Source: Candidatus Hydrothermarchaeales archaeon (lineage in GTDB: Archaea; Hydrothermarchaeota; Hydrothermarchaeia; Hydrothermarchaeales; SZUA-236). From it: DNA of 23,336 nucleotides. Where the stretch lies: NCBI GenBank assembly GCA_046761145.1, contig JBHIFP010000023.1:1-23336 (forward strand). The letters are read 5' to 3'. Both the position numbers and the translations under genes were made by a program. Below are positions 468 to 23,336 of this stretch, piece by piece. The notes beneath the pieces are model-generated. The model had not been told where the DNA came from and did not search any database. It saw nothing but the letters and a program-made list of their open reading frames with translations. The stretch's first letter is position 1. Every line of letters begins with the position of its first letter.

Positions 468-2937
468 CTTCCTCTACTTCCATCACTGGTAGTTTTATAA
501 TGAAAGTTGCCCCCTTGTCTACAGCGCTCATCACATCGATGGTGCCCTCATGCCCGTCGATGATTTGTTTACATATCGCTAAACCCAAACCAATCCCTTT
601 TGCCTTGGTGGTAAAGAGCGGTTCGAAGATCTTCTCTATATTCTCTTTCGGAATCCCTTTGCCGGTGTCCTCAAACTCTATCTCTACGGAGTTGCCCTTA
701 CTTTTGGTTCTGATAATCAATTTACCACCTTCGGGCATCGCATGAACAGCGTTTGAAATCATATTCAAGAACACCCGCTGTAATTGCTCTCCGTCTGCCA
801 TCATCGAGGGTAAATCGGCCAGATAGGTTTCCACTTTGACATCGTCAGGTACCGATGCCCTGGCCAATGTATCCTTAAGGATCGCATTGATGTTGGCTTC
901 CCCAAAAGTGGGTTCTACCCCCCGTGAAAAGTCCAATAAGTCGGTGACGATTTTGTTGGAGGTATCTAGTTCCCTCTCTAGGATATTCAGGTGCTTCTTC
1001 ACCTTTTCATCTTTCCGGCCTAGGGTCATGTTGAGATAGTAGCTCACGTTCTTGATCACTCCAAGAGGATTTCTCAACTCGTGGCCAACACTCGCTGCCA
1101 GCTGCCCTATGGAAGCCAGCCTCTCTGACTTTACTAGCTGCTCTTGCGATTTTCTCAACTCCTCCATCTTACTTTCGACTTCAGCGCTGTAATATTTTAG
1201 AGACCGAATGGTCTCGTCCACTTCGGTAAACCCAACTCTGGCTATGAGCAAGGCCAGGAACATGCCTATCGCCCAGAGCAAGGTTACGTATTCATTTGTT
1301 GTGAAACTGAAGTTCTGCAAAAATCTGGTCTTGGAAAGGACCCCAAACCTCCCGACACCTTCGAGAAATATCGGGATAATGACCATAAATAGGAAGAGAC
1401 CGAAATAGCGCAGTTCCGGTATTCTAGTTGTCTGAACCGTTTTGTAGAGGGGATAAAGAACAAATATCGCCAAAAAGACGAAGACGTAAAGTTGTACCCT
1501 CCCCCACATAACTAGGAGCTTTACATTCCATGGCGCTTCGGGCGGCTCCCTCTTCCCTTGCAGAGTTAAGGTAGCATCGTCGATGCCTTGAAGCACGGCA
1601 TCGAGGTTGTCGATCGAGGGATTCCTCTTGGCATCTACAAATCTCTTTCTAATGACCATGTAAAGTTCTGGGTCTTCATCGGCGACTACACTTCTGATCG
1701 CATTGAAAATCGCCAAGGCATGATCGACCTCCGAAAGCGCCAATCCTGGTTCCCCGCGCCCAGTATATGCCCTAGCGGTCTGAAGATAATCGCGGATTAG
1801 CGCCAATTGGGTTATCTCTTCAGAACCAATCCCGCCAAATTCCAGGGTTCGCGCCAGCATGCTTATGCTGTGTCCTTGGCCATAACCCTCGTTGGCGGAT
1901 CCGTGAGAATCGTCATTCACAGCTATGCTGAAACGATAGGTCTTCGTGATATCGAACTGGACGTCGTCGTCGTGCCCGGTCTGCAATTTTCTCTTGAGTT
2001 CCAGATGCCACTTCCCGTCATAATAAACCCCTTTGGCGCTTATGTCTCTAGCACTTCCAGTCGGTTTTTCGGAGATGTATGCAGGAACTTTAAAGCCTAT
2101 CGGGATCTCCCTTCCATCGTTCAGTTTCGTCAGATTCAAAAATTCCACGGCCTCGTCCCTAAGGATCTCCTCCATCGTGATGTGTTTCGCATCTTCGCCC
2201 CTTGCGTCAAGTTCATAATATCTCGGCCCGATGAAATTACTCCTCTCATCGACAACCACATTCATTCTCTCCTCCACATACTCCCCCGATGTTTCATCTA
2301 GCTTGTGTGAATGCCATGTCTTCTCGATCATAGAGGTCCTAGAAAAACCAGGATATATCTTCTCCCCGATAACCACGGTATCGTCTAGGAATCCATCCCA
2401 CATATAGCCAGAGGGGTTGCCTTTCTCTGCCTTCCATTTCCAGTAATCGAGTCTTTCTTCTGGGGTATTGGTATGCATCCTATTTGCGTGGCAAGTAATG
2501 GCACATCCGGCTATATCGAAGCCCTCAACCGAGTCCCTTATGTTCCAGAAGATCGTGAACATATCCTCGGTATTTTTATTTGGGGGGTTCCAAGCAGTAC
2601 CATTATATCTCCAGAATAAAGCATCGCTTTGGGTTGGATCAGGCCATACGATGTACATATAGACATAGTCACGGTCATACAATGCCTTCATCTCCACATC
2701 CACATCCCCGACCTTTCCATCCACCACGGGGATGATCATTGTCTTTGTCTCATTCCACGAAGACTCTTTTGCCTGCCCATCTATGATTACCGCTTCGTTT
2801 GTTCTCACAGCGCTTAATAGCGTGCTATATTCTTCTTCCGCCGCTGTAAGCGTTCCATTTACCATAAGTGCACTAGCAATAAATGCCACTACCAAAATGA
2901 GCGCCGCTTTTTTTTGTTCTTTGTTCATCCAGCTCAC
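448..2937 (-). CDS. Sensor histidine kinase with a large N-terminal extracytoplasmic domain (~450 aa) and a multi-TM region
   Basis: 829 aa. N-terminal signal/TM 'AALILVVAFIASALMV'. C-terminal H-box 'ASVGHELRNPL' followed by an HATPase_c region (N-box 'FLNMISNAVHA', G-boxes 'DTGKGI', 'GLGLAI'). Four to five hydrophobic helices precede the HisKA domain. The start is probably GTG at 2937 (the track shows M), or ATG 9 nt downstream. Confidence 0.85.
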   Translation of the reverse strand: MSWMNKEQKKAALILVVAFIASALMVNGTLTAAEEEYSTLLSAVRTNEAVIIDGQAKESSWNETKTMIIPVVDGKVGDVDVEMKALYDRDYVYMYIVWPDPTQSDALFWRYNGTAWNPPNKNTEDMFTIFWNIRDSVEGFDIAGCAITCHANRMHTNTPEERLDYWKWKAEKGNPSGYMWDGFLDDTVVIGEKIYPGFSRTSMIEKTWHSHKLDETSGEYVEERMNVVVDERSNFIGPRYYELDARGEDAKHITMEEILRDEAVEFLNLTKLNDGREIPIGFKVPAYISEKPTGSARDISAKGVYYDGKWHLELKRKLQTGHDDDVQFDITKTYRFSIAVNDDSHGSANEGYGQGHSISMLARTLEFGGIGSEEITQLALIRDYLQTARAYTGRGEPGLALSEVDHALAIFNAIRSVVADEDPELYMVIRKRFVDAKRNPSIDNLDAVLQGIDDATLTLQGKREPPEAPWNVKLLVMWGRVQLYVFVFLAIFVLYPLYKTVQTTRIPELRYFGLFLFMVIIPIFLEGVGRFGVLSKTRFLQNFSFTTNEYVTLLWAIGMFLALLIARVGFTEVDETIRSLKYYSAEVESKMEELRKSQEQLVKSERLASIGQLAASVGHELRNPLGVIKNVSYYLNMTLGRKDEKVKKHLNILERELDTSNKIVTDLLDFSRGVEPTFGEANINAILKDTLARASVPDDVKVETYLADLPSMMADGEQLQRVFLNMISNAVHAMPEGGKLIIRTKSKGNSVEIEFEDTGKGIPKENIEKIFEPLFTTKAKGIGLGLAICKQIIDGHEGTIDVMSAVDKGATFIIKLPVMEVEEDEGKES

Positions 2938-4615: not shown

Positions 4616-6130
4616 ATGCAGAAAGAGGAGAGAAAAAGAATCTCACTGCTGGTTGTAGCCGCGTTTGTGGTAGCAACGATTGCATTTGTAACATTAACGC
4701 CTGGATTCAGCTTCTTAGAACAATTTGTTAGAGTGGGAGAAGAAAAGCCAACCACCACTGAGGGGGCTACTTACGTCGGTTCAATTCGATGTAAGCAATG
4801 CCATGAAGGGACTTACGCCGGTTGGAAAACAACCTTGCATCCATATAAGATACAGAATATCGAGGATGCCCTTGTTGTCGGCGATTTCGAGAAGAACAAC
4901 AAGTTGGTCATCAAAAAGGGTGATGTCGAGTACACAACGACGATGTCAAAAAAGGAAGGGAAATACTACATAACCACTATTGGCCCGGATGGAAAGGAGC
5001 ACGCCTACGAAGTGCTCTATACCCTCGGTAGTGCCTGGAAGCAGAGATATCTCACGAAGTTCGACAATGGGGAATTCCATATACTCCCCGTTCAATGGAA
5101 TATTAGGGACCAGAAGTGGCAAGACTACCATGGGCTGGAGAAATATGATTATGATGATCCCAAAAATTATTGGAGCAGTAGGGGAAGGATCTGGCAGTAT
5201 AAATGTGCTGGTTGTCATACAACTGGTTTTCAAATAAACTACGATGAAGTCACGGATACCTATGCCTCAACTTGGATAGATAACGGAGTCGGATGTGAAG
5301 CTTGTCACGGACCGGGGAGCAACCACATATTGGCCGATATCCCTTACAAGAAGGAGACGATCGTCAATCCAGCGAAGATCCCACAAACAGATATAGGGGT
5401 CATGGTTTGTGGCTCATGCCACACCCGGGGTCATTCTACCCTCGATGCGAAATATGGATATCCCGTTGGCTACAAACCCGGCATGAACTTGGTACCTCTG
5501 TTCGATCCTGTTACGCGCGAAAAAGATACACCAAAACGCTTCTGGCCGAGTGGAGACTCCAGATCGCACCACCAACAGTATCTAGACTGGAAGACAAGCG
5601 AGCACGCGAGGGTAGGGATAGTATGCTGGGACTGCCACACCGTTCACTCTAAAGGTGAAGGCAAGTTCGAGACCAAGCTAGCAGGCACTGCGCTGTGCAA
5701 GGCCTGCCACGGTGAGCCGAGGGAGGTTCCAGGCCTCGCTGGGTTGAGCCACACCATCATGGACTTCGGGAACTGCGTCGGCTGCCACATGCCCCCGACT
5801 GCAAAGAGCATAAACCCAGGAGATATTAGGAGCCACAGGTTCAAGGTCATTAAACCAGAGGTCAGCATAAAACTCCTGCTTGACAAGGCTGCGAAGAAGG
5901 ATAAAACGGTCTTGGGCTTCTACGGCCTCGAGGCTAAAGATGTGGAAGGCCTTAACAAGACCGAAGTGGAAGAGCTGCTCAAGAACAAGGCCCGAGAAGC
6001 TATGTACGCAGGAAAAACCATGGACGACCTGCTCTGGAATGTGCAGCCCAACTCATGCAACGGATGCCACCACCACGTTTCACCTTGGATACTTCAAGAA
6101 TACCTCGAACCTCCGCGTCTGCATGAATAA
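4616..6130 (+). CDS. Octaheme c-type cytochrome, membrane-anchored or secreted (N-terminal TM/signal)
   Basis: 504 aa with eight canonical CxxCH motifs: CKQCH, CAGCH, CEACH, CGSCH, CWDCH, CKACH, CVGCH and CNGCH. N-terminal hydrophobic segment 'ISLLVVAAFVVATIAFVTL'. A haem-free ~130-aa insert lies between haem 1 and haem 2. Confidence 0.9.
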   Translation: MQKEERKRISLLVVAAFVVATIAFVTLTPGFSFLEQFVRVGEEKPTTTEGATYVGSIRCKQCHEGTYAGWKTTLHPYKIQNIEDALVVGDFEKNNKLVIKKGDVEYTTTMSKKEGKYYITTIGPDGKEHAYEVLYTLGSAWKQRYLTKFDNGEFHILPVQWNIRDQKWQDYHGLEKYDYDDPKNYWSSRGRIWQYKCAGCHTTGFQINYDEVTDTYASTWIDNGVGCEACHGPGSNHILADIPYKKETIVNPAKIPQTDIGVMVCGSCHTRGHSTLDAKYGYPVGYKPGMNLVPLFDPVTREKDTPKRFWPSGDSRSHHQQYLDWKTSEHARVGIVCWDCHTVHSKGEGKFETKLAGTALCKACHGEPREVPGLAGLSHTIMDFGNCVGCHMPPTAKSINPGDIRSHRFKVIKPEVSIKLLLDKAAKKDKTVLGFYGLEAKDVEGLNKTEVEELLKNKAREAMYAGKTMDDLLWNVQPNSCNGCHHHVSPWILQEYLEPPRLHE

Positions 6131-6157
6131 TAAAATTCTGCAAGGAGAACAGGACCA

Positions 6158-6721
6158 ATGAGAGAGATGGTAAAGGGAGGGGTTCTAATACTCCTCCTTT
6201 TAGGCTTCATATCCCTGAGCCATGTCGTGGAGGCTCAGGAAGTTCAGCAGAGGGACATGGAGAAATACTGGAGTGAGAGGTGGAAGAGCCCCCTACCCCC
6301 TGAGGCTAAGACGAAGTATAAGCTTGCATATACCCTTGAATATGCGAATAAGACGTACCAAGAATCTCCTCACGGAAAGGCAGCTGCTCTTGGAAAAGAG
6401 GGAGTTCCGACTTGTACGGATTGTCACGGCATGGTGGACTGGATGTATTTCCTTCCACAGAGCGATCCAAATTCACCCATCAATCCTAAGAACAGACCTG
6501 ATATATGCGCGAGGGAGGATTGTCATGGTGTTAAATTGCCCAATGCAGGCAAGGGATCGATGCATGGAAGCGATATATACTCTCTAGGCCCAACCTCCGT
6601 GAATGGGCTGATAAACTTCCTCTACAAAATACTTATCTCCGCAGTGATCGGATTCTTCGTAGTCTTTGAGATTTTGGACTTCACCAGAAAGTTCGGTAAG
6701 AGCAAGAGGGGGGGCGTGTGA
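6158..6721 (+). CDS. Small membrane-anchored dihaem(?) cytochrome c
   Basis: 187 aa. Signal peptide 'GGVLILLLLGFISLSHVVEA'. One canonical CTDCH plus a CAREDCH (CX4CH, cytochrome c3-like spacing). C-terminal TM anchor 'LISAVIGFFVVFEIL'. It sits 27 nt after the octaheme gene and ends 1 nt before the cytochrome b start. Confidence 0.7.
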   Translation: MREMVKGGVLILLLLGFISLSHVVEAQEVQQRDMEKYWSERWKSPLPPEAKTKYKLAYTLEYANKTYQESPHGKAAALGKEGVPTCTDCHGMVDWMYFLPQSDPNSPINPKNRPDICAREDCHGVKLPNAGKGSMHGSDIYSLGPTSVNGLINFLYKILISAVIGFFVVFEILDFTRKFGKSKRGGV

Positions 6722-6722
6722 A

Positions 6723-7397
6723 ATGGCCGAAGAGGAATTCTTAAGATTTACCGTCTTTCAGAGGATACAACACGTCCTTTGGGCCCTATCGTTTTTCGTA
6801 TTGGCATTGACGGGATTCCCACTGAAATACGCCCATACCTCATGGGCACGGGGTATAGTTGACTTGCTTGGGGGTCCGGATAAGAGAGGTTTATATCATC
6901 GAATTGCTGCAGTAGTATTCATCGGTACAGGTCTTATACACGTGATATACTATATCCTGATCGACAGAGGAAAGAAGGACATAATGCCGAAGAGGAAAGA
7001 TTTCGACGATGCTATACAACACATCAAATACAATTTAAGGATGACCGACGAAATGCCAAAAATGGGGAGGTACACCTGGGAGCAGAAGTTCGATTACTGG
7101 ACCGGAGCTGTTGGTTCCCTCATAGTAGTTGTGACGGGGTTTATGATGTGGTTCACATTCGATATGGTGTTGAAGGTACTGCCGCTGCAGTTCGTCAATT
7201 ATGCCCGGCTGATACATGGGTGGGAAGCAATTCTGGCATTTTCTTTCGTGATAGTGGTACATTTATACGCGACGATTTTGAATCCGGATGTATTTCCAAT
7301 GGCAAAGCAATGGATAACTGGAACACTGAGTAAAGAACAAATGGAACATGAGCACCCGTTGGAGCTGGAAGAATTGACAGAGGGGGAAGAGGCATAG
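6723..7397 (+). CDS. Dihaem cytochrome b membrane subunit (FdnI/HydC/Ni-hydrogenase cytochrome b-like, PF01292-type)
   Basis: Candidate His haem ligands in predicted TM helices: 'QHVLWAL', 'YHRIAAVVFIGTGLIHVIYY', 'HGWEAILAFSFVIVVHLY'. The ATG at 6723 (MAEEEF) lies directly after the TGA of the upstream gene. The track ORF extends to 6666, but the upstream extension overlaps the preceding CDS. Confidence 0.75.
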   Translation: MAEEEFLRFTVFQRIQHVLWALSFFVLALTGFPLKYAHTSWARGIVDLLGGPDKRGLYHRIAAVVFIGTGLIHVIYYILIDRGKKDIMPKRKDFDDAIQHIKYNLRMTDEMPKMGRYTWEQKFDYWTGAVGSLIVVVTGFMMWFTFDMVLKVLPLQFVNYARLIHGWEAILAFSFVIVVHLYATILNPDVFPMAKQWITGTLSKEQMEHEHPLELEELTEGEEA

Positions 7398-8256: not shown

Positions 8257-8724
8257 TTAAGATATCTTATGTATAAGTTCCATCGTCCCCAACTTAAAGT
8301 ATCCCAACTTGGGTATTATGAAGATAACCCTGCCATTGATCCATTCCCCCTTGACAGGAGTGGATATCCCCGAACGCGGGTCCTGATCGGTGTAAAAATT
8401 ATGATCCCCTTTTGTGTAAAAAAGTAAGGACCCTTCATAATCTTCGATCTTTACAACGCGGTGCACTATTGGGATGCCTTTTGCTGGATTCTGATAAACG
8501 ATTATATCCCCCCTCAGTAGTTGATCGGGATCGATGCCTCTGACGATGACCAAATCCCCCTTGTAGAATGTGGGGGCCATGCTATTCGAAACAACTGCCA
8601 TGACGGGCTTTTGGGTACCCAAAGCATAACCCAGGCCTTGATTCATAAATACCGCCAAGATCAGCCCTATCGCTATATACTTTATCGTGCTTATGATCTC
8701 TTCCTTCCACTTCATCGTCGACAC
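8257..8724 (-). CDS. Signal peptidase I, archaeal/Sec11 type (copy A)
   Basis: N-terminal TM anchor. Catalytic Ser motif 'VSNSMAPT'. Conserved 'GDLVIV...GDIIVY' and 'TKGDHN' boxes. A paralog lies at 12469..12930. Confidence 0.85.
   Translation of the reverse strand: MSTMKWKEEIISTIKYIAIGLILAVFMNQGLGYALGTQKPVMAVVSNSMAPTFYKGDLVIVRGIDPDQLLRGDIIVYQNPAKGIPIVHRVVKIEDYEGSLLFYTKGDHNFYTDQDPRSGISTPVKGEWINGRVIFIIPKLGYFKLGTMELIHKIS
8498..8604. repeat. 107-nt tract identical to 12713..12819 (internal segment of the two SPase I paralogs)
   Basis: Both loci carry 'acgattatatcccccctcagtagttgatcgggatcgatgcctctgacgatgaccaaatcccccttgtagaatgtgggggccatgctattcgaaacaactgccatgac'. Flanking sequence is only ~65-70% identical. 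Confidence 0.8.
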
Positions 8725-12468: not shown

Positions 12469-12930
12469 TTACAGGGTTCCTTTAATTGAGGTCGAGAATT
12501 CGGTCAGAATCACCTTAAACCAACCGAGCTTGGGTATAATTAGGATAACCCTCCCTTTCACGAGGTCTTCTCTGACTGGCGGCGAGATCCCGAACTCGGG
12601 GTCTGTCCTCAAATTGTGATCCCCTTTTGTTACAAAATACCGAAGCCCTTCGCGTTCCTCGATATCTACGATGCGATGCACGATGGGGATATTCTTATAA
12701 GGATTATAATATACGATTATATCCCCCCTCAGTAGTTGATCGGGATCGATGCCTCTGACGATGACCAAATCCCCCTTGTAGAATGTGGGGGCCATGCTAT
12801 TCGAAACAACTGCCATGACCGGTTTCTCTGTACCCAGGGCATAGCCCAATCCATGATTCATGATGGATGCCAAGATCAGCCCCAACAGTATATACTTCCC
12901 CGTCTCAACAATCTCTTTCTTTACATCCAT
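12469..12930 (-). CDS. Signal peptidase I, archaeal/Sec11 type (copy B)
   Basis: 153 aa paralog of 8257..8724 with the same motifs: 'VSNSMAPT', 'GDLVIV', 'TKGDHN'. Confidence 0.85.
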   Translation of the reverse strand: MDVKKEIVETGKYILLGLILASIMNHGLGYALGTEKPVMAVVSNSMAPTFYKGDLVIVRGIDPDQLLRGDIIVYYNPYKNIPIVHRIVDIEEREGLRYFVTKGDHNLRTDPEFGISPPVREDLVKGRVILIIPKLGWFKVILTEFSTSIKGTL

Positions 12931-14270: not shown

Positions 14271-14433
14271 GGGTCTACCTCATCTAGGGCATTCATTGAT
14301 ATAACCGTCTCATTTCCTATTAAAATCATTTCATTTCGCCATTAGGAAAGAAGGAATCTCTTTAGGAGACATTGGCCTAGAATCAGAAAAGGTTAAATAT
14401 GGAGAGGATTTAGTTAAGTGAGGAAGGATCAAT

Positions 14434-14742
14434 ATGCACCCTACACATATGTTGGAGTTCGTAGGCGGACTGGCGACTATCCCCTTTTATTTGGCCACGC
14501 TTTACCTCTTCTTTTCGCGGGTCAGGAGTAGATATGAGAAACGGGGCCTCTTTTTCACCATGGGGCTCCTACTTATCGTATTCAGCTATTTTTCGGAGTT
14601 TTGGGGGGATCACTATGCAGTTACCTGGTTGACTACCCTATCAAATGGGCTGTTTGGATTGGCGGGGATATCCATGATTATAAGTTGCTATTTCTCTATA
14701 AAATGGCTCGATGCAACTTCCCAGAAAAAAGGGGAGGCCTGA
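14434..14742 (+). CDS. Hypothetical small integral membrane protein
   Basis: 102 aa with 3 predicted TM helices. Lies downstream of an AT-rich promoter-like region (TATA-like 'ggttaaatatgg' ~14391-14402). Confidence 0.45.
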   Translation: MHPTHMLEFVGGLATIPFYLATLYLFFSRVRSRYEKRGLFFTMGLLLIVFSYFSEFWGDHYAVTWLTTLSNGLFGLAGISMIISCYFSIKWLDATSQKKGEA

Positions 14743-14743
14743 C

Positions 14744-15037
14744 ATGAATCTGCCAGCGATCTTTTCATTTGCAAACATCGTATATTTTGCAGTTGCTGCA
14801 TACCTGGGATATCTCAACTATCAGAAAAGCGATCATAGCGGGTTTTGGCTCCACCTGACTCTAGTTTTTTGTATTAGCACAATAGTCTCGATCACGAACT
14901 TCGCAAAATATGTTGGACTTATTTTAAAGGTTACTGGGGATATTATAGACGTGGTATTGGGTATAGAGATAGCTGTCCTCTTCTTCACCGCAGTATATAC
15001 ATTGACGAAAAAACACCACGAGGAGCACGTCTTTTAA
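14744..15037 (+). CDS. Hypothetical small integral membrane protein
   Basis: A strong GGGGAGG Shine-Dalgarno lies 7 nt upstream of the internal ATG (MNLPAIF), directly after the stop of the preceding ORF. 3 TM helices. Confidence 0.45.
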   Translation: MNLPAIFSFANIVYFAVAAYLGYLNYQKSDHSGFWLHLTLVFCISTIVSITNFAKYVGLILKVTGDIIDVVLGIEIAVLFFTAVYTLTKKHHEEHVF

Positions 15038-15222
15038 TAGAGTAGCGGGTTAAGGCAATTTTAACTATTGATGTGGTCCCAGTTTTTAAAAAGGCCCAGT
15101 ATGTGCACCAAGAGGCAATAAGCTACATACATAATGGGCAGTGGAAAGGCATCGATGGACCAAGATTATATTATGTTTCCGGTAAATGCGATACCTCGAA
15201 AAGAGAACTCCAACATAAAAGG

Positions 15223-15239
15223 AAAGTTATAAATATAAT
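15223..15239 (+). promoter_or_regulatory. Putative TATA box for the 15279 membrane-protein gene
   Basis: 'aaagttataaatataat' lies ~40-55 nt upstream of the start. 'ggttaggag' SD-like. Confidence 0.3.
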
Positions 15240-15278: not shown

Positions 15279-16130
15279 GTGGCAGTCAAATTTGGTGCAG
15301 AGAAACTGTTGATTGACCAGTTCTTCGATCACCACGGCATGATGGAGATCTATGCGCATATCTATGCATCAATATTCCTGTTTCTTGCGAGCTTGGTCGC
15401 TGTTTACGTGCTCTATAAGATACTGGTAATGGAGTCCCCTTACACTTGGTCCGCGCTCACCGTCGGGATGATCGCTGTGGGATTCATAGGGCTTGGGGAA
15501 GCCGCCGAACACTTCTTCCCCCTAGACCCATTTAGCCATGATCTATTCCACTACTTGCATATGGTAGCCGCTCCAGTAGCGCTCTTCTTTTTATATAGAG
15601 GATCGAAAGAATTTATCGAGGAATCTTCAAACGCCTCCGAATTGGGAACTGAGGGCAGGATCAAACCTATGTCGTCCGATACTATAATGGCGATATTTGG
15701 GGGTATGGTGATCCTGGTGGTGGTTTTGGCCATGATGTCGGAAACTCCATGGGACCCATATATCGAAGGCCCCTTCATCTATCTCACCCTAATACCGACT
15801 TTGGTATTGGCTTATATGCTCTTACAGCAGGCCAGGCATACGACCGAATCCATCGTTATGGTGTTCATCCCGATCATTGCTGTTGCGGTCTCTTTGCTCG
15901 TCTTTGATATAATGCTTGGGAGGCTCATGGATATCTGGGGCTTGGCCCCTTTGTACGTTATAACTCACGTTGTGCAGAACGTCCTCCACGTTGCGACCGG
16001 CACGATACTGCTCCTATTCTCCATCACCACTTATCGCGCCAACAAGTTGGGAATTATATATGTCCGTGGTGAGCGTCCAAAATATGAAGCGCCTCCTCAT
16101 AAGAAGATCCCCGCGGAGGATTATTTCTAA
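15279..16130 (+). CDS. Hypothetical polytopic membrane protein (~7 TM)
   Basis: 283 aa, GTG start, hydrophobic throughout. No motif recognised. Coordinates follow the ORF track; in the printed text the same ORF reads from 15280. Confidence 0.5.
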   Translation: MAVKFGAEKLLIDQFFDHHGMMEIYAHIYASIFLFLASLVAVYVLYKILVMESPYTWSALTVGMIAVGFIGLGEAAEHFFPLDPFSHDLFHYLHMVAAPVALFFLYRGSKEFIEESSNASELGTEGRIKPMSSDTIMAIFGGMVILVVVLAMMSETPWDPYIEGPFIYLTLIPTLVLAYMLLQQARHTTESIVMVFIPIIAVAVSLLVFDIMLGRLMDIWGLAPLYVITHVVQNVLHVATGTILLLFSITTYRANKLGIIYVRGERPKYEAPPHKKIPAEDYF

Positions 16131-16248
16131 AGGGATGTACTTCTGAATCAGAAAAATTTATATAACCCCATAGAGATTAGCTCTCTGTTTCGTTTTGATG
16201 ATCGACAAAGCTGGTAGCTCAGCATAGAATTGTTCAGGATGTACGAAG

Positions 16249-16785
16249 ATGAGCATAAAAGAGATCAGCAAAAGTTTGAGGGAGAACAAGTCTGGATTCC
16301 TTGTAACCTTCCTCGCTTTGCTGTTATTCTGGCTCTTTGTGTCATCGACCTTCGATATCCAACACATCATGCTTGGCGCCTTCTGCGCCCTCCTTGTCGC
16401 CGTCTTCTCCCACGAAATGCTCATTCGGAAAGGCGAGAGGGCCTTGCCTAAACCCAAAGTGATTATCCTGTATCTATTTTATATCGGATATCTGATAACC
16501 GAGATAATAAAGTCCAATATACAGGTTGCACGTATAGTCCTCGACCCAAAGATGCCCATATCTCCGGGGATAGTGAAATTCAAGACGGGCCTCAAGAAAG
16601 ACCTCATAAAAGTCACTTTGGCAAACTCGATTACACTGACCCCTGGTACTTTTACTATAGATATCATCGGCGATACATATTACGTCCACGCGATAACGAC
16701 CCATCGGCCCGAAGAATACGCCAGAGGCATTGAGGAGTGGCCCATGTTGAGGAGGTTGAGGGAGATAGAGAATGTTAGCGGGTGA
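16249..16785 (+). CDS. mrpE: Mrp/Mnh-type cation:proton antiporter subunit E (MbhA-like)
   Basis: 178 aa. 'NSITLTPGT' motif. First gene of a translationally coupled cluster. Confidence 0.75.
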   Translation: MSIKEISKSLRENKSGFLVTFLALLLFWLFVSSTFDIQHIMLGAFCALLVAVFSHEMLIRKGERALPKPKVIILYLFYIGYLITEIIKSNIQVARIVLDPKMPISPGIVKFKTGLKKDLIKVTLANSITLTPGTFTIDIIGDTYYVHAITTHRPEEYARGIEEWPMLRRLREIENVSG

Positions 16786-17063
16786 GCAAAACGATCGAGC
16801 CAAATATCTTCATTTATATGGGTGTGATATTGGGGTTCACGAGCTTCTTATGTCTCTACAGAGGGGTTAAAGGGCCATCTGCACCGGATAGGGTAATCGC
16901 GATAAATGTGATAGGGACAAAGACCATGGTAATTTTGGTTTTGTTTGCTTACATCTATGAGCATCCTTTATACATCGACGTGGCCATCGTCTATGCCCTG
17001 ATCAACTTCTTAGCCACCCTAACGATTTCGAAATATTTGGAGAAGGGGGAGTTGGGCGAATGA
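16782..17063 (+). CDS. mrpF: Mrp/Mnh antiporter subunit F (MbhB-like)
   Basis: 93 aa. 'KGPSAPDRVIAINVIG' (the GPx..DR..A.D signature). ATGA overlap with mrpE. Confidence 0.8.
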   Translation: MSKTIEPNIFIYMGVILGFTSFLCLYRGVKGPSAPDRVIAINVIGTKTMVILVLFAYIYEHPLYIDVAIVYALINFLATLTISKYLEKGELGE

Positions 17064-17419
17064 TCGATACGATAGTAATGCTATTCTTTATCATAGGACT
17101 GTTCTTCTTCATCGTTGGAACGATCGGATTGTTGAGGCTGCCCGATGTCTATACGAGGATGCACGCCACGACAAAGTGCGACACCTTGGGAGCGATGACG
17201 ATATTGACAGGACTTGCCGTATATTCTGTTGTATTGGGCGCGCCAGGAAGTTTGTTCATTTCGGGAAAAATGATTTTGATAGCAACCTTTATCTTTGTCG
17301 CCAATCCCACTTCGGCACATGCCATAGCCAAGGCCGCATACCTTAGCGGTGTTAAGTTATGGGAAGGAAGTGTATTTGATATGTACGGGAAAGATGCAAA
17401 AAAAACGTATGCGAGGTGA
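17060..17419 (+). CDS. mrpG: Mrp/Mnh antiporter subunit G (MbhC-like)
   Basis: 119 aa. 'GLLRLPDVYTRMHATTKCDTLG' signature. Overlapping start. Confidence 0.8.
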   Translation: MIDTIVMLFFIIGLFFFIVGTIGLLRLPDVYTRMHATTKCDTLGAMTILTGLAVYSVVLGAPGSLFISGKMILIATFIFVANPTSAHAIAKAAYLSGVKLWEGSVFDMYGKDAKKTYAR

Positions 17420-17670
17420 AAAGAATGATATGGCTCTTGGATCTGATCCTTCTTCTATTTTTGGTGGTATGTTCCCTAGAGGTGATCCGTACAAAGGATC
17501 TACTGAGCGCCGTTGTGATCTTCTCTGCATATAGCCTAGTCATGTCGATCATATGGCAGCAATTAGATGCCCCGGACATAGCCATAACCGAAGCAGCTGT
17601 CGGAGCCGGGATTACTACGATGTTGTTCATAGCGACCATAAGTAAGACGACGAGGTGGGAAGAAGAATGA
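17416..17670 (+). CDS. MnhB-N-terminal-like small membrane subunit (DUF4040; MbhD-like)
   Basis: 84 aa. 'AVVIFSAYSLVMSIIWQQLDAPDIAITEAAVGAGITT'. Confidence 0.65.
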   Translation: MKRMIWLLDLILLLFLVVCSLEVIRTKDLLSAVVIFSAYSLVMSIIWQQLDAPDIAITEAAVGAGITTMLFIATISKTTRWEEE

Positions 17671-17975
17671 GGTTAAAGGGGTCGTTGGCCAGACGGTTTT
17701 TGGCCCTTCTTTTTGTGATAATAATCGGATATGCCCTAGTGACGATCGTGACAGAGATGCCCCCCTTTGGGGATCCAAACAGTCCTGGATATACCCATGT
17801 GGTGCCGAGGTACATAACCGAGAATGTTGAGGAAACTGGAGCCTTGAACATCGTTGCGAGTATAATAGTCGATTATAGGGCCTATGACACCCTCGGTGAG
17901 ACGACAGTGCTCTATACCGCGGCCCTCGGCATCATCTCCGTTCTCGCTTTAGGAGGAGAGCACGAGGAGGAATGA
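17667..17975 (+). CDS. MnhB-related small membrane subunit (MbhE-like)
   Basis: Start placed at the ATGA overlap (MRLKGS). 'NIVASIIVDYRAYDTLGETTVLYTAALGI'. Confidence 0.6.
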   Translation: MRLKGSLARRFLALLFVIIIGYALVTIVTEMPPFGDPNSPGYTHVVPRYITENVEETGALNIVASIIVDYRAYDTLGETTVLYTAALGIISVLALGGEHEEE

Positions 17976-17976
17976 G

Positions 17977-18402
17977 ATGGAAGATGTAATCGTTAGGACC
18001 GTAACAAGGATGATGACCCCCCTCATACAGATGTTCGGTTTGTACATCATATTTCACGGCCATTTAACCCCTGGTGGCGGGTTTCAGGGCGGTGCGGTCA
18101 TAGGTGGCAGCATGATACTGATCGCCGTGGTCTTCGGCTTGAAAGAGGGCAATAGGAGGGCGCCCCATGATCTCTCTGTGATACTCGAAAGTTTCGCCTT
18201 GGGTTATGCTATCATAGGTTTATTAGGCATTCTTTTAGGAGGAAATTTCTTGGCAAATAAGATCGTTGGGATACCTGTTGGGACGCCCGGAGCTTTGTTG
18301 AGCGGAGGTATAATCCTCGGAATCAACATAGTAATCGGGTTCAAGGTCGCTAGTACTGGGAAAACTCTATTTTACACTATAGTGGAGGAACGGCCAGAAT
18401 GA
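17977..18402 (+). CDS. mrpB: Mrp/Mnh antiporter subunit B (MbhF-like)
   Basis: 141 aa. 'GHLTPGGGFQGG' MnhB signature. Confidence 0.75.
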   Translation: MEDVIVRTVTRMMTPLIQMFGLYIIFHGHLTPGGGFQGGAVIGGSMILIAVVFGLKEGNRRAPHDLSVILESFALGYAIIGLLGILLGGNFLANKIVGIPVGTPGALLSGGIILGINIVIGFKVASTGKTLFYTIVEERPE

Positions 18403-18779
18403 TGATACCCGCGGGTTTTTATCAGTACAATTACCTGATCTCTTCAACCCTATTTTTGATAGGTCTGTACACGATGATCACCAGGAAGAACCTGATAAAG
18501 AAGATCATAGGGCTGAATATCATGGACACCTCGATATTCCTATTCTTCATATCTATGGGGAGCGTCAAAGGAGGGAGGGCCCCGATCGTTATTCCTGGCG
18601 TCGAGAATGTGGTGTATGTGAATCCACTGCCCCAAGCCCTCATACTCACTGCCATCGTCGTTGCTGTCAGCGTCACCGCGTTTGCACTCGGCCTCACGAT
18701 AAAATTGTACGAGAAGTATGGTACGCTGAACGGAGATAAGATCAGAGAGATCAGGATAAGAGGACCTGGAGAGAGTTGA
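18399..18779 (+). CDS. mrpC: Mrp/Mnh antiporter subunit C (NuoK-like; MbhG-like)
   Basis: 126 aa. Three TM helices. NuoK-like 'TRKNLIKKIIGLNIMDTSIFLFFI'. Confidence 0.75.
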   Translation: MMIPAGFYQYNYLISSTLFLIGLYTMITRKNLIKKIIGLNIMDTSIFLFFISMGSVKGGRAPIVIPGVENVVYVNPLPQALILTAIVVAVSVTAFALGLTIKLYEKYGTLNGDKIREIRIRGPGES

Positions 18780-18780
18780 G

Positions 18781-20274
18781 ATGGGCATCTCCCAACATTT
18801 TCCTGTCTTGATAGTAGTAACACCGTTGATAGCTTCCTATATTGTCCCGATGTTTGCCAGATGGAGAAAGGAGTGGTGTGTGCCTACAACTATATCCGCT
18901 ACTCTCCTGTCTTTCTTTATGGCTATCTCGATGGCATTCACCGTGCAAAAGGCAGGCCCAATACACTACTATCTTGGAAACTGGGAACCTCCGTGGGGGA
19001 TAGAGGTTGCGGTAGATTATCTGGGCGCCTTCGTGGCATTGATGGTTACTGGCATTGGTCTACTTATAGTCATATTCTCAGTTAGATATGCCGAGGAGAT
19101 GATAGATGAGAGAAATATATATTTATATTATGCCTTGGTCTTACTCCTCTTGGCGGGTCTCACTGGGATGGTCGTCACGGGCGACATATTCAACCTATTC
19201 GTCTTCCTGGAGATCGCCTCTCTGTCTTCCTATGCATTGGTTCCGATTGCTGGCAAGAAGGGAACGGAAGGGCAGTTCGAATCGAGCTTCAGATACCTCT
19301 ACATGGGGGCAATGGCCTCGAGCTTTGTGCTACTCGGTATTGGTTTAACATATATGACCACCGGGACCTTGAATATGGCCGATCTTGCAGTAAGGATAAA
19401 AGAGGTTGCAATGCCCAATTATCCTAGGGTGTTATTGGCCGGTTTGGGTTTTTTGGTCGTCGGCTTCAGTCTGAAAACTGCACTATTCCCGTTGCACATA
19501 TGGGTGCCGGATGCATATACCCATGCGCCAGCGCCTGTAAACGCATTATGCTCAGGAATAACTTTAGAGGTCGGCGCTTATGTCCTTATAAGGCTCTTTT
19601 ATTCCATCTTCGGTATGCCCGTTGTAAATGGCACAGCGCTCGATGAGATACTGCCACTGCTTGCCGGTATAGCAATCATCTTCGGTTCTCTATTTGCGAT
19701 AGCCCAGAACGATGTCTTCCGCATGTTGGCGTACTCAACTATAAGCCAGATGGGCTATATAGTTCTTGGTGCAACATTATTCTCTCATAATGGTTTGATA
19801 GGGGGGATATACCATCTAATCAATCATTCGGTTATGAAGGGCACGATGTTCCTGGCGGTTGGTGCTGTGGTCTATAAGACGGGGATCAGGGATATACCCG
19901 AATTTGGTGGTCTGGGCAAGAAGATGCCCCTGACCATGGGCGCATTTTCAATATCCGCCCTCGGGATGGTCGGGATACCTCCCCTTGCGGGCTTTATGAG
20001 CAAATTTTTCCTGGTCCTCGGAAGTCTGCAATCAAATATGGCTTTCGTATTCGTCATACTTGCGAGTAGTTTGCTGAATGCGGTCTATTTCATGAGGGTG
20101 ATAAACCACATATATTTCGGAGTCCCCGAAGATTTGGTGATCAAGAGGGATGAAGCGCCTTTGAGCATGTTGATACCGACGGTTATCATGGGGCTTGGGG
20201 TTATAGCCCTGGGCCTATTTCCCGGTGCTCCACTCTCCTTGATAAAGCCCGCGGTCAAGTTGCTAGGGCTGTAG
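18781..20274 (+). CDS. mrpD: Mrp antiporter subunit D / NuoN-L-M family proton-translocating subunit (MbhH-like)
   Basis: 497 aa and ~14 TM helices. 'WVPDAYTHAPAPVNALCSG' and 'ISQMGYI' signatures. Confidence 0.85.
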   Translation: MGISQHFPVLIVVTPLIASYIVPMFARWRKEWCVPTTISATLLSFFMAISMAFTVQKAGPIHYYLGNWEPPWGIEVAVDYLGAFVALMVTGIGLLIVIFSVRYAEEMIDERNIYLYYALVLLLLAGLTGMVVTGDIFNLFVFLEIASLSSYALVPIAGKKGTEGQFESSFRYLYMGAMASSFVLLGIGLTYMTTGTLNMADLAVRIKEVAMPNYPRVLLAGLGFLVVGFSLKTALFPLHIWVPDAYTHAPAPVNALCSGITLEVGAYVLIRLFYSIFGMPVVNGTALDEILPLLAGIAIIFGSLFAIAQNDVFRMLAYSTISQMGYIVLGATLFSHNGLIGGIYHLINHSVMKGTMFLAVGAVVYKTGIRDIPEFGGLGKKMPLTMGAFSISALGMVGIPPLAGFMSKFFLVLGSLQSNMAFVFVILASSLLNAVYFMRVINHIYFGVPEDLVIKRDEAPLSMLIPTVIMGLGVIALGLFPGAPLSLIKPAVKLLGL

Positions 20275-20371
20275 CTAGGAAATATTTATTGTGAAAGATT
20301 AGAAACATTTATGTAGCACGCGTAAATAAAGAATACTTGCAATCTATCATGATAAATCATTTAGATGTGGT

Positions 20372-21862
20372 ATGATGGTTGGCGAGACTGCGACCTCCAT
20401 ATTGTTGGTTTTGGCGGTTTGGATACCGGCTATTTTGTCCGTGCCCATCTATCTAGCTGGGAGGTACTCCGAAGATCTGAGGAACTATCTCGCAGTAGGG
20501 AGTACTGTGGCTTCATTTTTGTTATCCTTGGCTATGATCCCCGCTGTGTTGGGCGGTACCGTTCTGGAATTTGTCCTGCTTCCTTCTACGGTCTCCCCCA
20601 TACCAATCGAGTATATGGCAGATCCCCTCGGCCTGCTCATGGCTATAATGTCCTCATTTGCTTGGATGCTTGCTACGATCTATTCCATCGCCTACATGGA
20701 GCCAGAACATGCGAAGGATAGATATTATGGGTTCTTGATCTTGACTTTCAGCTCGATGATGGGCGTCGTATTGGCGAAGAATCTATTTACATTGTATATA
20801 TGCTTTGAAATCCTCGCGATAGCGTCTTGGGTTCTCGTTATTCACGAAGAGACGGATGAGGCAATGGAGGCCGGGAAAAAGTATCTATTCATGGGCATCG
20901 GCGGCGGTCTCTTCCTCTTGTTCGCCGTGGTTATGACGTTCATAGAATCGAATGTACTGGATATAAGCAGGGTCGGTATCTTGCAATATAATGGCTGGAT
21001 AACACAGGCGATATTTTACAGTTACATAATCGGTTTTGGTACGAAGGCAGGGATGTTCCCCATGCATGTATGGTTGCCAGATGCGCATCCTATCGCGCCA
21101 TCCCCTTGTAGCGCACTACTTTCTGGGGTGATGATCAAGGCAGGTGCATATGGCATAATCAGGACGATCTACAACATATTTGGCGTTCCCCTCATATTCA
21201 GGATGAATGCCCATATCGTGATAGCGGGCTTCGCCGGCATGGCCATAATCCTGGGCTCGGCCGTCGCGATATCGCAGAAGTTGCTGAAGAGGATGTTGGC
21301 CTACTCATCTATAAGCCAGATGGGCTATATAATCCTGGGTTCTATGTTCCTCACTACAAGGGGTTTGGAGGGCGGCATTTTGCACCTATTCAACCACATC
21401 CTGATGAAGGATGCATTGTTCCTCGTCGCTGGAGCGCTCATCTTCAAGACCGGCAAAAAGAACATAGATGACTTTGCCGGGATTGGGAGGAAGATGCCCC
21501 TCTCAATGCTCGTCTTTACGGTAGCTGCCCTATCGATGATAGGTCTCCCGCCATTTGCCGGATTTATAAGCAAGTGGTATCTCCTCTTGGGCGCCTTGGA
21601 CGCTGGTACTATAGCACTTACATTTTATGTGGTCGTCCTCCTCGCGAGCAGCCTGATGAATGCGGTATATTACATGCCGATAATAATTAAGGCCTATTTT
21701 GGCGTGCATGAGGGCGAGCACGAGGAAGTAGAGACGGACGAAGCTCCTCTAGTCATGTTGATCCCCATGCTTATTCTGGCCCTCGGCGTCCTGTTATTTG
21801 GGATATTCCCGAACATACCCCTTGCCCTGATAAGGCCTGCCGCCAAGTTGATGGGGATGTAG
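20372..21862 (+). CDS. Second NuoL/M/N-family antiporter-like subunit (MrpA-core or MbxH'-like)
   Basis: 496 aa. 'WLPDAHPIAPSPCSALLSG' and 'ISQMGYI'. No MrpB-like C-terminal domain. Preceded by the only real intergenic gap (97 nt) in the cluster. Confidence 0.8.
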   Translation: MMVGETATSILLVLAVWIPAILSVPIYLAGRYSEDLRNYLAVGSTVASFLLSLAMIPAVLGGTVLEFVLLPSTVSPIPIEYMADPLGLLMAIMSSFAWMLATIYSIAYMEPEHAKDRYYGFLILTFSSMMGVVLAKNLFTLYICFEILAIASWVLVIHEETDEAMEAGKKYLFMGIGGGLFLLFAVVMTFIESNVLDISRVGILQYNGWITQAIFYSYIIGFGTKAGMFPMHVWLPDAHPIAPSPCSALLSGVMIKAGAYGIIRTIYNIFGVPLIFRMNAHIVIAGFAGMAIILGSAVAISQKLLKRMLAYSSISQMGYIILGSMFLTTRGLEGGILHLFNHILMKDALFLVAGALIFKTGKKNIDDFAGIGRKMPLSMLVFTVAALSMIGLPPFAGFISKWYLLLGALDAGTIALTFYVVVLLASSLMNAVYYMPIIIKAYFGVHEGEHEEVETDEAPLVMLIPMLILALGVLLFGIFPNIPLALIRPAAKLMGM

Positions 21863-23336
21863 GGGGCTTCTAATCTTCCAAAAAAAATAGATAAGAGGTA
21901 TATGTTTAGCTACTCTCATAAATTACTTTTCCCAAGGTTTTTAAGGGCACCGACTTCAGCCTCCTTTTCATGGCAACAAGCTTAGATCATGCAACCACTC
22001 CACCATGCCTCAACTGCAATATCTTCAAGCTTCTTCAAGACTATGCCAGGAGAATAGAGGAGGTGGAGAAAACCAATTCTGAGCTGGCTAGTAGGATTTC
22101 AGAGCTTGAAGCCAAGCTGGCAAAATACGAGAGCCCGCACACACCTTCATCGGCACAGAGATTCAAAAAGGAGCCGAAAGGTCAAACTCCGAAAAAGCGT
22201 GGGGCGCCAAAGGGACACAGGGGGGCAACCCGGAAGATCCCAATACCAGACGAAACCATTCCAGTCCCAACAGCACGCTGCCCAAGATGCGGACAAGACC
22301 CTGGAGACCCCGTAGACACAGAGGAGAAGATCGTCGAAGAACTTGAATCAGCCCCGAAGATCAAGGTCACAAAGTATATCCTAGACAAGCACGTTTGCCG
22401 GCACTGCGGCCACCCGTTCACCGCCAGACACAGTGCCTGTCCTACAAAGGGGAACTTCGGCGTTCACCTGCTCGTATACGCCACGATGCTCAAGTATCAT
22501 CTGAGAGGGCCCCTCAGAAAGGTGCAGGATTTCATGGGCCATTACAACGACTTCGAGATCAGTACGAAGGGCGTTATGGACATGCTCCTGAGAGTCGGGG
22601 ATGCCTGCAAGAGCGAGTACGATAGGATCCAGGAGAAGGTGAGGGCCGCCAATTGGAGGTATATCGACGAGACAGGGATCAAGATCAACGGCGAGCAATG
22701 GTGGCTCTGGATCTTCAGGACTGATAAGGACGATGTCCTCACCGTCATTAGAAGATCCAGAGGGAAAAAGGTGGTGGACGAGATCCTTGGAGAGGACCAC
22801 GTCGGGCCGGATGTGGTAGATGGCTGGAGGGCATATTCTCATATCAACATAGTTCAAAGGGGCTGGGCGCACCTCCTAAGGGAGGTGGACGATCGCAAGG
22901 ATGTTTCCGACACCGGTAGACGGCTCTCCGAGGAGACACATTCCATGTTCGATGAGCTGAAGGCTTTCATCGGGAAAGACCCTCCGATGAGTGAGAGGAA
23001 ACGTGAAAAACAGGAGTTCGAAGAGAAGATGGAAGACCTGGTCGAGAGATATAGCAACTTCGAGGAGCTCAAGAAGCCGGTGGGCTATATACGCGGCGGT
23101 CTTGGTAAGTGGTTCACATGCCTACTTTATCCTGGTATGGAGCCCACCAACAACCTGGGCGAGCAGGCCATGCGAGAGCATGTGATCATGAGGAAGATAA
23201 TCGGGTGCTTCCGATCGGAGAACGGCTCCCAGAACTATCAGTACATCGCCTCTCTCTTTGCATCGTGGAAGCTGCAGGGCAAGAACATATTCGTAGAGCT
23301 AGAAAAGCTGCTAAGAAGAGAGCTCTGCCTAGCGTA
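21863..23336 (+). mobile_element. Partial IS66-family insertion sequence; left end not defined
   Basis: The transposase ORF above, plus a visibly higher GC and different codon usage than the flanking genes. No terminal inverted repeat could be recognised by eye in 21863..21969. Confidence 0.55.
21970..23336 (+). CDS. IS66-family transposase (TnpC-like), 3'-truncated by the window end
   Basis: Not in the ORF track because it has no stop within the window. Hand translation from ATG 21970 gives an open frame of ~455 codons to the end. It shows an N-terminal leucine zipper, a 'GAPKGHRG' motif, a Zn finger 'CPRCG...CRHCGH', 'IDETGIKINGEQWWLWIF', 'DGWRAYSH', 'QRGWAHLLRE' and 'NNLGEQAMRE'. These are classic IS66 motifs. 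Confidence 0.8.
   Translation, partial: MATSLDHATTPPCLNCNIFKLLQDYARRIEEVEKTNSELASRISELEAKLAKYESPHTPSSAQRFKKEPKGQTPKKRGAPKGHRGATRKIPIPDETIPVPTARCPRCGQDPGDPVDTEEKIVEELESAPKIKVTKYILDKHVCRHCGHPFTARHSACPTKGNFGVHLLVYATMLKYHLRGPLRKVQDFMGHYNDFEISTKGVMDMLLRVGDACKSEYDRIQEKVRAANWRYIDETGIKINGEQWWLWIFRTDKDDVLTVIRRSRGKKVVDEILGEDHVGPDVVDGWRAYSHINIVQRGWAHLLREVDDRKDVSDTGRRLSEETHSMFDELKAFIGKDPPMSERKREKQEFEEKMEDLVERYSNFEELKKPVGYIRGGLGKWFTCLLYPGMEPTNNLGEQAMREHVIMRKIIGCFRSENGSQNYQYIASLFASWKLQGKNIFVELEKLLRRELCLA

Follow-up and report, generated by a model that had tools for sequence, protein, structure and literature searches.

Group 3 Mrp operons contain no mrpA and only mrpD, sometimes in several copies (PMC8415708; PMC5703873), and the mrpFGBCDDAE operon of Microbacterium TS-1 is an example of the type with multiple mrpD genes (PMC5703873). 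A functional stand-alone system, mrpEFGBB'CD, is found in Pyrococcus furiosus (PF1147-PF1153), where Mrp deletion changes how sensitive the cells are to acidification of the medium and how their H2 production depends on Na+ (PMC8415708; PMC5703873). In MBH, MBS, Mrp and complex I the antiporter-like subunits are tied together by a lateral helix that a review describes as universally conserved (PMC8165549). Here we describe a cluster of nine genes at 16249-21862 (+) of a 23,336-nt stretch of DNA, hereafter the window, which is one whole contig of a metagenome-assembled genome (MAG) of a Candidatus Hydrothermarchaeales archaeon and whose end falls inside an insertion sequence (IS). We consider it likely that the cluster encodes a multisubunit cation/proton antiporter of the Mrp type (CPA3) and is a complete, stand-alone 'group 3' operon.

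The cluster consists of nine intact open reading frames (ORFs), all on the forward strand and each scoring well above the gathering score of its Pfam family, and the family assignments made with NCBIfam agree with those of Pfam. It begins with mrpE (MbhA-like, 178 aa, 16249-16785; MNHE, PF01899, E = 1.7e-37), which is 58-60% identical to its homologues in two related loci, L011 and L049 (loci are designated by L and a number). There follow mrpF (MbhB-like, 93 aa, 16782-17063; MrpF_PhaF, PF04066, E = 1.6e-21) and mrpG (MbhC-like, 119 aa, 17060-17419; PhaG_MnhG_YufB, PF03334, E = 8e-29; NCBIfam NF009314, 118 bits against a cut-off of 102). Three small genes come next: one for an MbhD-like subunit (84 aa, 17416-17670; MbhD, PF13244, E = 5.5e-22), one for an MbhE-like subunit (106 aa, 17655-17975; MbhE, PF20501, E = 2.1e-10) and mrpB (MbhF-like, 141 aa, 17977-18402; MnhB, PF04039, E = 1.2e-28; NF006248, 97.4 bits, cut-off 92). 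They are followed by mrpC (NuoK/MbhG-like, 126 aa, 18399-18779; Oxidored_q2, PF00420, E = 1.9e-27; NF005621 for subunit C, 128.9 bits, cut-off 126) and by two genes for large antiporter-like subunits, D1 and D2.

In the NCBIfam comparison both the MbhD-like product (positions ~600-690) and the MbhE-like product (~700-790) match the last 200 residues of MrpA models. Together they are the equivalent of the MrpA C-terminal domain (TM17-21, where TM denotes a transmembrane helix), which is also what the 'MrpB' of P. furiosus corresponds to (PMC8415708). The equivalent of true MrpB (MbhF) is only the third of the three small genes, at 17977-18402. From mrpE to D1 the junctions are overlaps of 4-16 nt or a gap of 1 nt, which fits translational coupling, and the exception in the cluster is the 97-nt gap between D1 and D2. 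Of the features that define an Mrp antiporter, the cluster has E, F and G in three consecutive overlapping genes, MrpB with an equivalent of the MrpA C-terminal domain, MrpC, and an MrpD-type subunit with a charged axis; by analogy with characterized Mrp systems, cation/proton antiport is the predicted activity of the nine-gene complex. Since both large subunits are 496-497 aa long and there is no fused MrpA, we place the cluster in group 3 as defined in PMC8415708: two MrpD-family genes are the only large subunits and the gene order is irregular, with E-F-G first.

D1 (497 aa, 18781-20274) is of the MrpD/MbhH/MbsH type and D2 (496 aa, 20372-21862) is a second antiporter-like subunit, both matching Pfam Proton_antipo_M (E = 1.3e-60 and 1.2e-63, respectively). 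NCBI gives D2 as 495 aa from 20375, and the deposited protein, from a Candidatus Hydrothermarchaeales archaeon MAG, is 100% identical and starts at the second Met. Against chains of the PDB, D1 scores highest with MbsH (264 bits), followed by MbhH (252), MrpD of Bacillus pseudofirmus (232), MrpA (162) and MbsH' (154); for D2 the order is MbhH (219 bits), MbsH (162), MbsH' (158), B. pseudofirmus MrpD (153) and MrpA (152). With 152 bits to MrpA and 153 to MrpD, D2 is, as judged from these alignments, an MrpD-family paralogue and not specifically MrpA-like. It comprises the 14-TM core alone: its alignment to MrpA stops at residue 506 of 805, TM15-16, the lateral helix and the C-terminal domain are absent, and it has 496 aa against the 618 aa of MbsH'. 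When aligned to MrpD, MrpA, MbhH and MbsH, D2 has a canonical charged axis (TM5 Glu, TM7 Lys, TM8 Lys, TM11 His and TM12 Lys), and the axis of D1 reads E/K/E/H/K at the same positions. The central TM8 residue of D1 is Glu in the window and in L129 and L011, the two other Hydrothermarchaeales-type loci of the alignment, and Lys in the more distant D1 homologues of L137, L003, L006 and L014 as well as in MrpD, MbhH and MbsH.

In a rough neighbour-joining tree on Kimura distances with bootstrap, which held five reference sequences only, reconstructed from HMMER alignments, D1 joins MrpD/MbhH/MbsH/MbsH' at 100% bootstrap. D2 falls in a separate clade together with the D2, D3 and terminal-subunit types of clusters that have multiple D genes, and its placement relative to MrpA carries 5-22% support only. 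A lateral-helix subunit (MbhI, or TM15-16 of MbsH') was recognized neither in the nine cluster genes nor in m102, m108 and m283, three genes for membrane proteins that precede the cluster. An earlier, sequence-only reading of this DNA had described a nine-gene E-F-G...D-D' module at 16249-21862, and indeed all of the ORFs are present there and are confirmed by Pfam. That reading had also seen a three-way split of MnhB, which has to be given up because two of the three genes make up the MrpA C-terminal domain and the third alone is MrpB. Its comparison of the tandem large subunits with MbxH/MbxH' is borne out for D1, whose best match is MbsH, and fails for D2, which is only distantly similar to MbsH' and has neither TM15-16 nor a lateral helix.

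The contig broke inside a repeated IS, so that nothing is visible past it; whether catalytic genes follow is therefore unreadable from this contig, and relatives were used for comparison. Over 10.5 kb, L049 and the window are collinear (~67% nucleotide identity), and L049 carries the same nine genes with no IS. The shared order runs through MT, Dph2, an S26 peptidase and MfnA (minus strand), then m102, m108, m283 and the cluster from mrpE to D2. L049 overlaps L129 by 2,760 nt at 98.9% identity, so that the two describe one population. In L129, L130 and L057, D2 (75-77% identical to that of the window) is the last gene, and 78 nt on lie convergent GXGXG, Glu_synthase and GATase_2 genes. No NuoB/C/D/H/I-like genes were found beside the cluster in four annotated related loci (L011, L129/L130, L137 and L139). 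The simplest reading of these sequences is a nine-gene operon that is, most probably, complete, with the IS inserted into the spacer between two convergent genes. A stand-alone Mrp is supported by three observations: all Mrp modules are present, catalytic genes are absent nearby, and in the closest collinear relative, which has no IS, D2 is the last gene of the operon.

The IS (21898-23336, +) is an IS66-family element of the single-ORF type, identified by a DDE_Tnp_IS66 domain and cut by the contig end. The left repeat, GTATATGTTTAGCTAC (21898-21913, +), matches the ends of related copies. In four independent related copies that lie in differing contexts (L131-L134), the flanks diverge right before GTATTTGTTTAGCTAG and the copies end in its reverse complement; the window matches this boundary at 21898, which puts the start of the IS 35 nt past the D2 stop codon. 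A left end at ~21859, overlapping the D2 stop and based on two Logan contigs ending at 21886 and a k=31 argument, is ruled out by these four copies. Contigs with an identical D2 sequence occur in runs SRR29324585-87. Two of three such Logan contigs end at 21886, within an A8 run (21880-21887 in the window) and 11 nt before the IS boundary, a break that could be due to homopolymer variation or a graph artefact. The native spacer retained 3' of D2 (21863-21897) includes a candidate IS target site, GATAAGAG, at 21890-21897, and shares the 10-mer ATAGATAAGA (21887-21896) with the spacer between D2 and glutamate synthase in L129/L130. The D2 coding sequence is undisturbed: its C-terminus, ...AAKLMGM*, has the same length as the ...AAELLGL* of L011.

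The transposase ORF (455 codons, 21970-23336, +) starts 107 nt past the D2 stop and is open at the window end, ~1 nt before its own stop. It matches PF03050 (DDE_Tnp_IS66) with E = 1.4e-30 over profile positions 1-283 of 284 and, weakly, zf-IS66 (2.1e-4). Given that homologous single-ORF IS66 transposases measure 436-470 aa, the ORF is essentially complete; the deposited transposase on the same contig is labelled 'partial'. The contig stops ~60 nt short of the right end of the IS, past which the second copy of any 8-bp target-site duplication would lie, and since that end is off the contig, a search for inverted repeats within the window yielded only weak, chance-like pairs as IS ends. GC content climbs to 0.50-0.535 in the IS. 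Ending inside an IS is typical of contigs whose assembly broke at a repeat. From left repeat to transposase, related elements have ~260 nt and the window copy 72 nt; in L131 at least, a small DUF2080 ORF (193-351) overlaps the transposase start, and the window copy has no such ORF.

A second type of cluster, with eleven genes, occurs in other relatives. In L011, a Hydrothermarchaeales locus whose D2 is 74% identical to that of the window, D2 is followed by a third MrpD-like gene (D3, 500 aa), a terminal subunit of 824 aa (A4) and then homologues of m102 and m108. L137 and L139, from two further archaeal genomes, share this 11-gene layout, and there the cluster abuts an A-type ATP synthase operon. 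The type is also found in a Methanocellales MAG (L003, with five large subunits) and in Actinobacteria, Coriobacteriia and Clostridia-like MAGs. The first nine genes of these clusters are orthologous to those of the window and in the same order, with D2 58-74% identical in L011, L137 and L003 and 53% in L139. The 11-gene clusters of archaea and Gram-positive bacteria (L011, L137, L139, L003, L006 and L014) end in a large subunit of 775-975 aa with a long repeat-containing C-terminal extension. They are probably of the 'group 3 with multiple mrpD' type. A4-type subunits of 775-860 aa are encoded at 13015-15489 in L011, 12994-15570 in L137, 11998-14400 in L139 and 11638-13965 in L136, and the last ~260 residues of the L011 protein hold three to four repeats of the FDRxIDxxY type before a single TM helix at the very end. 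This part is plausibly an extra-long lateral helix that spans three other pump subunits.

These relatives raise the alternative that the operon is truncated from view: past the IS would lie genes for one more MrpD-like subunit and for a long terminal subunit of the NuoL/MrpA kind, and the whole would encode a four-pump Mrp-like complex. The D2-D3-A4 order of L011, the common layout of L137 and L139, and the pairing of the window-type D2 with that of L011 at 79% bootstrap in the neighbour-joining tree all speak for it. Nonetheless, the relatives that share the upstream synteny of the window (L049 with L129, and L057) end at D2, with the convergent genes a short distance on. Moreover, the D2-D3 spacer of L011 is just 14 nt, whereas the window keeps 35 nt that include the 10-mer of the L129 terminal spacer, and m102 and m108 lie upstream in the window as in L049, unlike in L011. 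The upstream position of m102/m108 and the retained spacer together assign the window to the nine-gene lineage, which lacks the D3 and terminal subunit of the 11-gene clusters, and we regard a truncated 11-gene operon as quite unlikely.

A stand-alone Mrp with nine genes would work as follows, by analogy with the solved Mrp, MBH and MBS complexes. The gene order, E-F-G-[MbhD-like][MbhE-like]-B-C-D1-D2, corresponds to the mrpEFGBB'CD of P. furiosus with its 'MrpB' split in two and D2 appended. D1 and D2 would each provide one proton path via the charged axis (TM5 Glu, TM7 Lys, TM8 Lys or Glu, TM11 His and TM12 Lys), the MbhD/E-like subunits and MrpC would form a small second proton path, and MrpB/E/F/G would be the Na+ module. 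Na+ (or K+) would be exchanged for H+, driven by existing ion gradients with no redox input. In the terms of PMC8415708, D2 may take the place of the antiporter-like N-terminal part of MrpA as an 'energy-input' proton module that has no lateral helix, a module that P. furiosus Mrp lacks. That the nine products form a single complex is presumed, as are its ion specificity and direction of transport. The IS66-family element has inserted 35 nt past the D2 stop, in the spacer that parts D2 from the convergent glutamate-synthase genes in the collinear relative. The sequence-only reading had offered, as one possibility, a stand-alone Mrp with an MrpA that lacks its MrpB-like domain. The stand-alone part is upheld by the presence of all modules, the lack of catalytic genes over 16 kb upstream and the convergent glutamate-synthase genes after D2 in the relative; the identification of D2 as MrpA is not, because D2 also lacks TM15-16 and the lateral helix.

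Several points weigh against a complete nine-gene antiporter. D2 is parted from D1 by 97 nt that hold a conserved promoter-like element, and its nearest homologues outside the lineage (L001 and L136) occur without any Mrp core. The window has no recognizable lateral-helix subunit, although helix HL is termed universally conserved in the solved complexes (PMC8165549); the stand-alone Mrp of P. furiosus is likewise without a lateral helix (Table 2 of PMC8415708). The more distant relatives L011, L137 and L139 carry two further large subunits past D2, and the 11-gene form looks widespread and is possibly ancestral. In this genome the DNA past the IS is unseen, and antiport by these nine genes or any close homologue is a prediction made by analogy.

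The spacer between D1 and D2 (97 nt, 20275-20371) contains a putative BRE/TATA-like promoter element (BRE, B recognition element), AAAGATTAGAAACATTTATGTA (20294-20315, +), that is conserved in relatives, where the spacer measures 80-140 nt. The element is nearly identical in L129, L138 and L049, in which coding DNA is only ~67-70% identical. A BRE/TATA-like element that may serve as promoter is also read upstream of mrpE, AGAAAAATTTATATAA (16150-16165, +), and similar ones precede m283 (15221-15238) and m102 (14385-14400). The orphan D2-type genes, which are 63-66% identical and stand without MrpE/F/G/B/C/D1, lie among MoeA and glycosylation genes in L001 (9992-11479) and are paired with an A4-like gene in L136 (10001-13965). 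Because of the spacer with its promoter-like element and of these core-less homologues, D2 is best described as a presumed member of the complex.

The corresponding alternative is that the Mrp complex runs from E to D1, as a P. furiosus-like single pump, and that D2 is transcribed separately and acts outside it, alone or with m283, m102 and m108. This would agree with a spacer that is conserved, promoter-like element included, where the other junctions overlap, and with the D2-type genes of L001 and L136; furthermore, single MrpA/D-like proteins with antiport activity are known, e.g. Nt-Nha (PMC5703873). In L137, L139 and L003, however, D2-type genes are tightly packed between D1 and further large subunits, and antiporter-like subunits stand side by side in every solved relative, while paralogues of m283 are also found in unrelated contexts (a histidine-kinase fusion, and beside HdrA/MvhD). 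We accordingly give a separate D2 little chance of being correct.

That the cluster is the membrane arm of an Mbh/Mbx(MBS)-like energy-converting complex, with a catalytic NuoB/C/D/H/I-like module past the IS or elsewhere in the genome, is highly improbable: the order E-F-G-D-E-B-C-H equals mbhA-H, the best PDB matches of D1 and D2 are MbsH and MbhH, and the contig ends in an IS with the downstream DNA out of sight, but there is no NuoH-like anchor or NuoB/C/D/I-like gene in the window or beside the four annotated related clusters, the collinear relative ends at D2, and no MbhI-like or MbsH'-like lateral-helix subunit is present. As no catalytic genes accompany the related clusters, any continuation of the operon past the IS would be expected to add antiporter-like subunits and not a catalytic module. 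The sequence-only reading had correctly placed an IS66 transposase 107 nt past the last gene and noted that catalytic subunit genes are missing; indeed, no NuoB/C/D/H/I-like or [NiFe]-hydrogenase domains were found among the 20 other ORFs of the window, the 16 kb upstream of the operon included. Its alternative of a catalytic module disrupted by the IS or lying past it does not hold up, since the IS sits beyond an intact D2 in what is a terminal spacer in the relative and NuoB/C/D/H/I-like genes are absent beside the L011, L129/L130, L137 and L139 clusters. As a refuting outcome it had named a grouping of D2 with bona fide MrpA and no catalytic genes nearby: D2 turns out to be an MrpD-family paralogue, and the absence of catalytic genes nearby is what we find. 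The best reading is that the region is not a remnant of a hydrogenase-type respiratory complex but an ordinary secondary ion antiporter, and that the sequence stops abruptly because the assembly broke in a repeated IS.

Directly upstream of the cluster, m283 (15279-16130, +) encodes a conserved 7-TM protein and is linked to the cluster. It has no Pfam match. The gene adjoins the cluster in L011, L049 and L138, and in L136 it adjoins the orphan D2-like gene. Sixteen close homologues were found, and those named by source are all from Hydrothermarchaeales; a profile search of 1.84 billion representatives returned 43 clusters. The AF2 model is a 7-helix bundle (pLDDT 79) for which a comparison with PDB folds gave no significant match, the best being G protein-coupled receptors (E = 0.006, TM ~0.5). 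In four distant homologues the domain precedes HisKA and HATPase_c, i.e., it is the N-terminal input domain of histidine kinases, and another paralogue (L140) adjoins HdrA- and MvhD-like genes. The domain has the motifs GLIGLGEAxEHFF and FHYLHMxAAP, and the same MAG holds a paralogue, ACE5PM_06070. The m283 protein has more the look of a sensor-type membrane domain than of an Mrp subunit, and in view of the kinase-fused homologues and the HdrA/MvhD-adjacent paralogue we do not claim it as one. A role as an energy-input or redox subunit was considered and rejected, given the lack of a Pfam match, the generic 7-helix bundle with no significant PDB match and the kinase-input homologues.

The two small membrane proteins m102 and m108 (~100 aa each, 14434-15037, +) have no Pfam match and travel with D2-type genes. 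In L049 and L138 their homologues precede the cluster; in L011 (15603-16199) and L136 (14019-14614) they come after the last large subunit, and in L059 (563-1170) after a D2-like gene. L136, which has no Mrp core, combines an m283 homologue, the D2-like and A4-like genes and a pair of genes for small membrane proteins, of which the one at 14312-14614 is recognizably homologous to m108. Outside these loci no relatives of m102 or m108 were detected, and neither has a PDB match, for which reason we rejected them as MbhI-like lateral-helix proteins. Nor are they detectably related to each other (hhalign probability 1.6%). Conceivably, although we think it unlikely, the D2-type subunit forms with m102, m108 and m283 a lineage-specific add-on module that works with or without the Mrp core and that, in the lineage of the window, replaces the lateral-helix terminal subunit of an 11-gene ancestor. 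If so, the add-on module would give a two-pump Mrp held together or regulated without helix HL.

The remainder of the window holds archaeal housekeeping genes (TFS, RpoL, Csl4, diphthamide synthase, an MfnA-like decarboxylase and Endo_dU), along with genes for a histidine kinase, an SPFH protein, an eight-haem cytochrome c and a cytochrome b. An Rfam scan of the whole window gave zero matches. The cytochrome genes stand in a row, encoding a multihaem cytochrome c with eight CXXCH motifs, a small one-haem protein and a Ni_hydr_CYTB-type cytochrome b (4616-7397 and 448-2937 (-), with the histidine kinase nearby). The extracytoplasmic part of this kinase is an EB_dh domain (haem-binding, ethylbenzene-dehydrogenase-like), and cytochromes and kinase may together make up an electron-transfer module, extracellular or in the membrane, that is equipped with a sensor; the block is unrelated to the Mrp operon in position and strand. 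Two paralogous S26/S24-like signal-peptidase genes, at 8257-8724 (-) and 12469-12930 (-), bracket a block of information-processing genes.

The two Hydrothermarchaeota genome papers make no mention of Mrp, and a group 3 Mrp with two MrpD-type subunits and a split 'MrpB' is now documented for Hydrothermarchaeales. The 9-gene and 11-gene versions in close relatives are a natural pair for asking what extra pumps and a lateral helix contribute. The value of the finding is modest and comparative, and it will be no surprise to specialists.

Among known systems, P. furiosus Mrp is matched in the E-F-G-first order, in the absence of mrpA and of a redox module from the operon, and in an MrpA C-terminal domain that is encoded separately, upstream of true MrpB, and followed by MrpC and an MrpD-type subunit; both hosts, moreover, are marine hydrothermal archaea. 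The window differs in having two genes in place of the one for P. furiosus 'MrpB', an MbhD+MbhE fusion, in the addition of D2 after a 97-nt spacer, and in the Glu, not Lys, at the central TM8 position of D1. Function has been tested in P. furiosus; for the operon described here it is predicted. The membrane arms of MBH and MBS (Mbx) of Thermococcales (PDB 6cfw and 6u8y) are resembled in the first eight genes, which stand in mbhA-H order, in having MbhD and MbhE as separate genes (as in MBH), and in the best structural matches, D1 to MbsH of MBS and D2 to MbhH of MBH. Unlike these complexes, the window has no MbhJ/K/L/N/M (NuoB/C/D/I/H-like), no MbhI and nothing like TM15-16 or the lateral helix of MbsH', to which D2 is related only distantly (158 bits). 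Compared with group 1/2 Mrp (Bacillus pseudofirmus, 7qru; Anoxybacillus flavithermus, 6z16; Dietzia, 7d3u), the order is E-F-G first rather than A-G, and there is neither a fused ~800-aa MrpA nor a recognizable lateral helix or TM15-16, but the window has counterparts of all modules, namely two antiporter-like subunits, MrpC, the MrpA C-terminal domain, MrpB and MrpE/F/G, and the charged axes are conserved.

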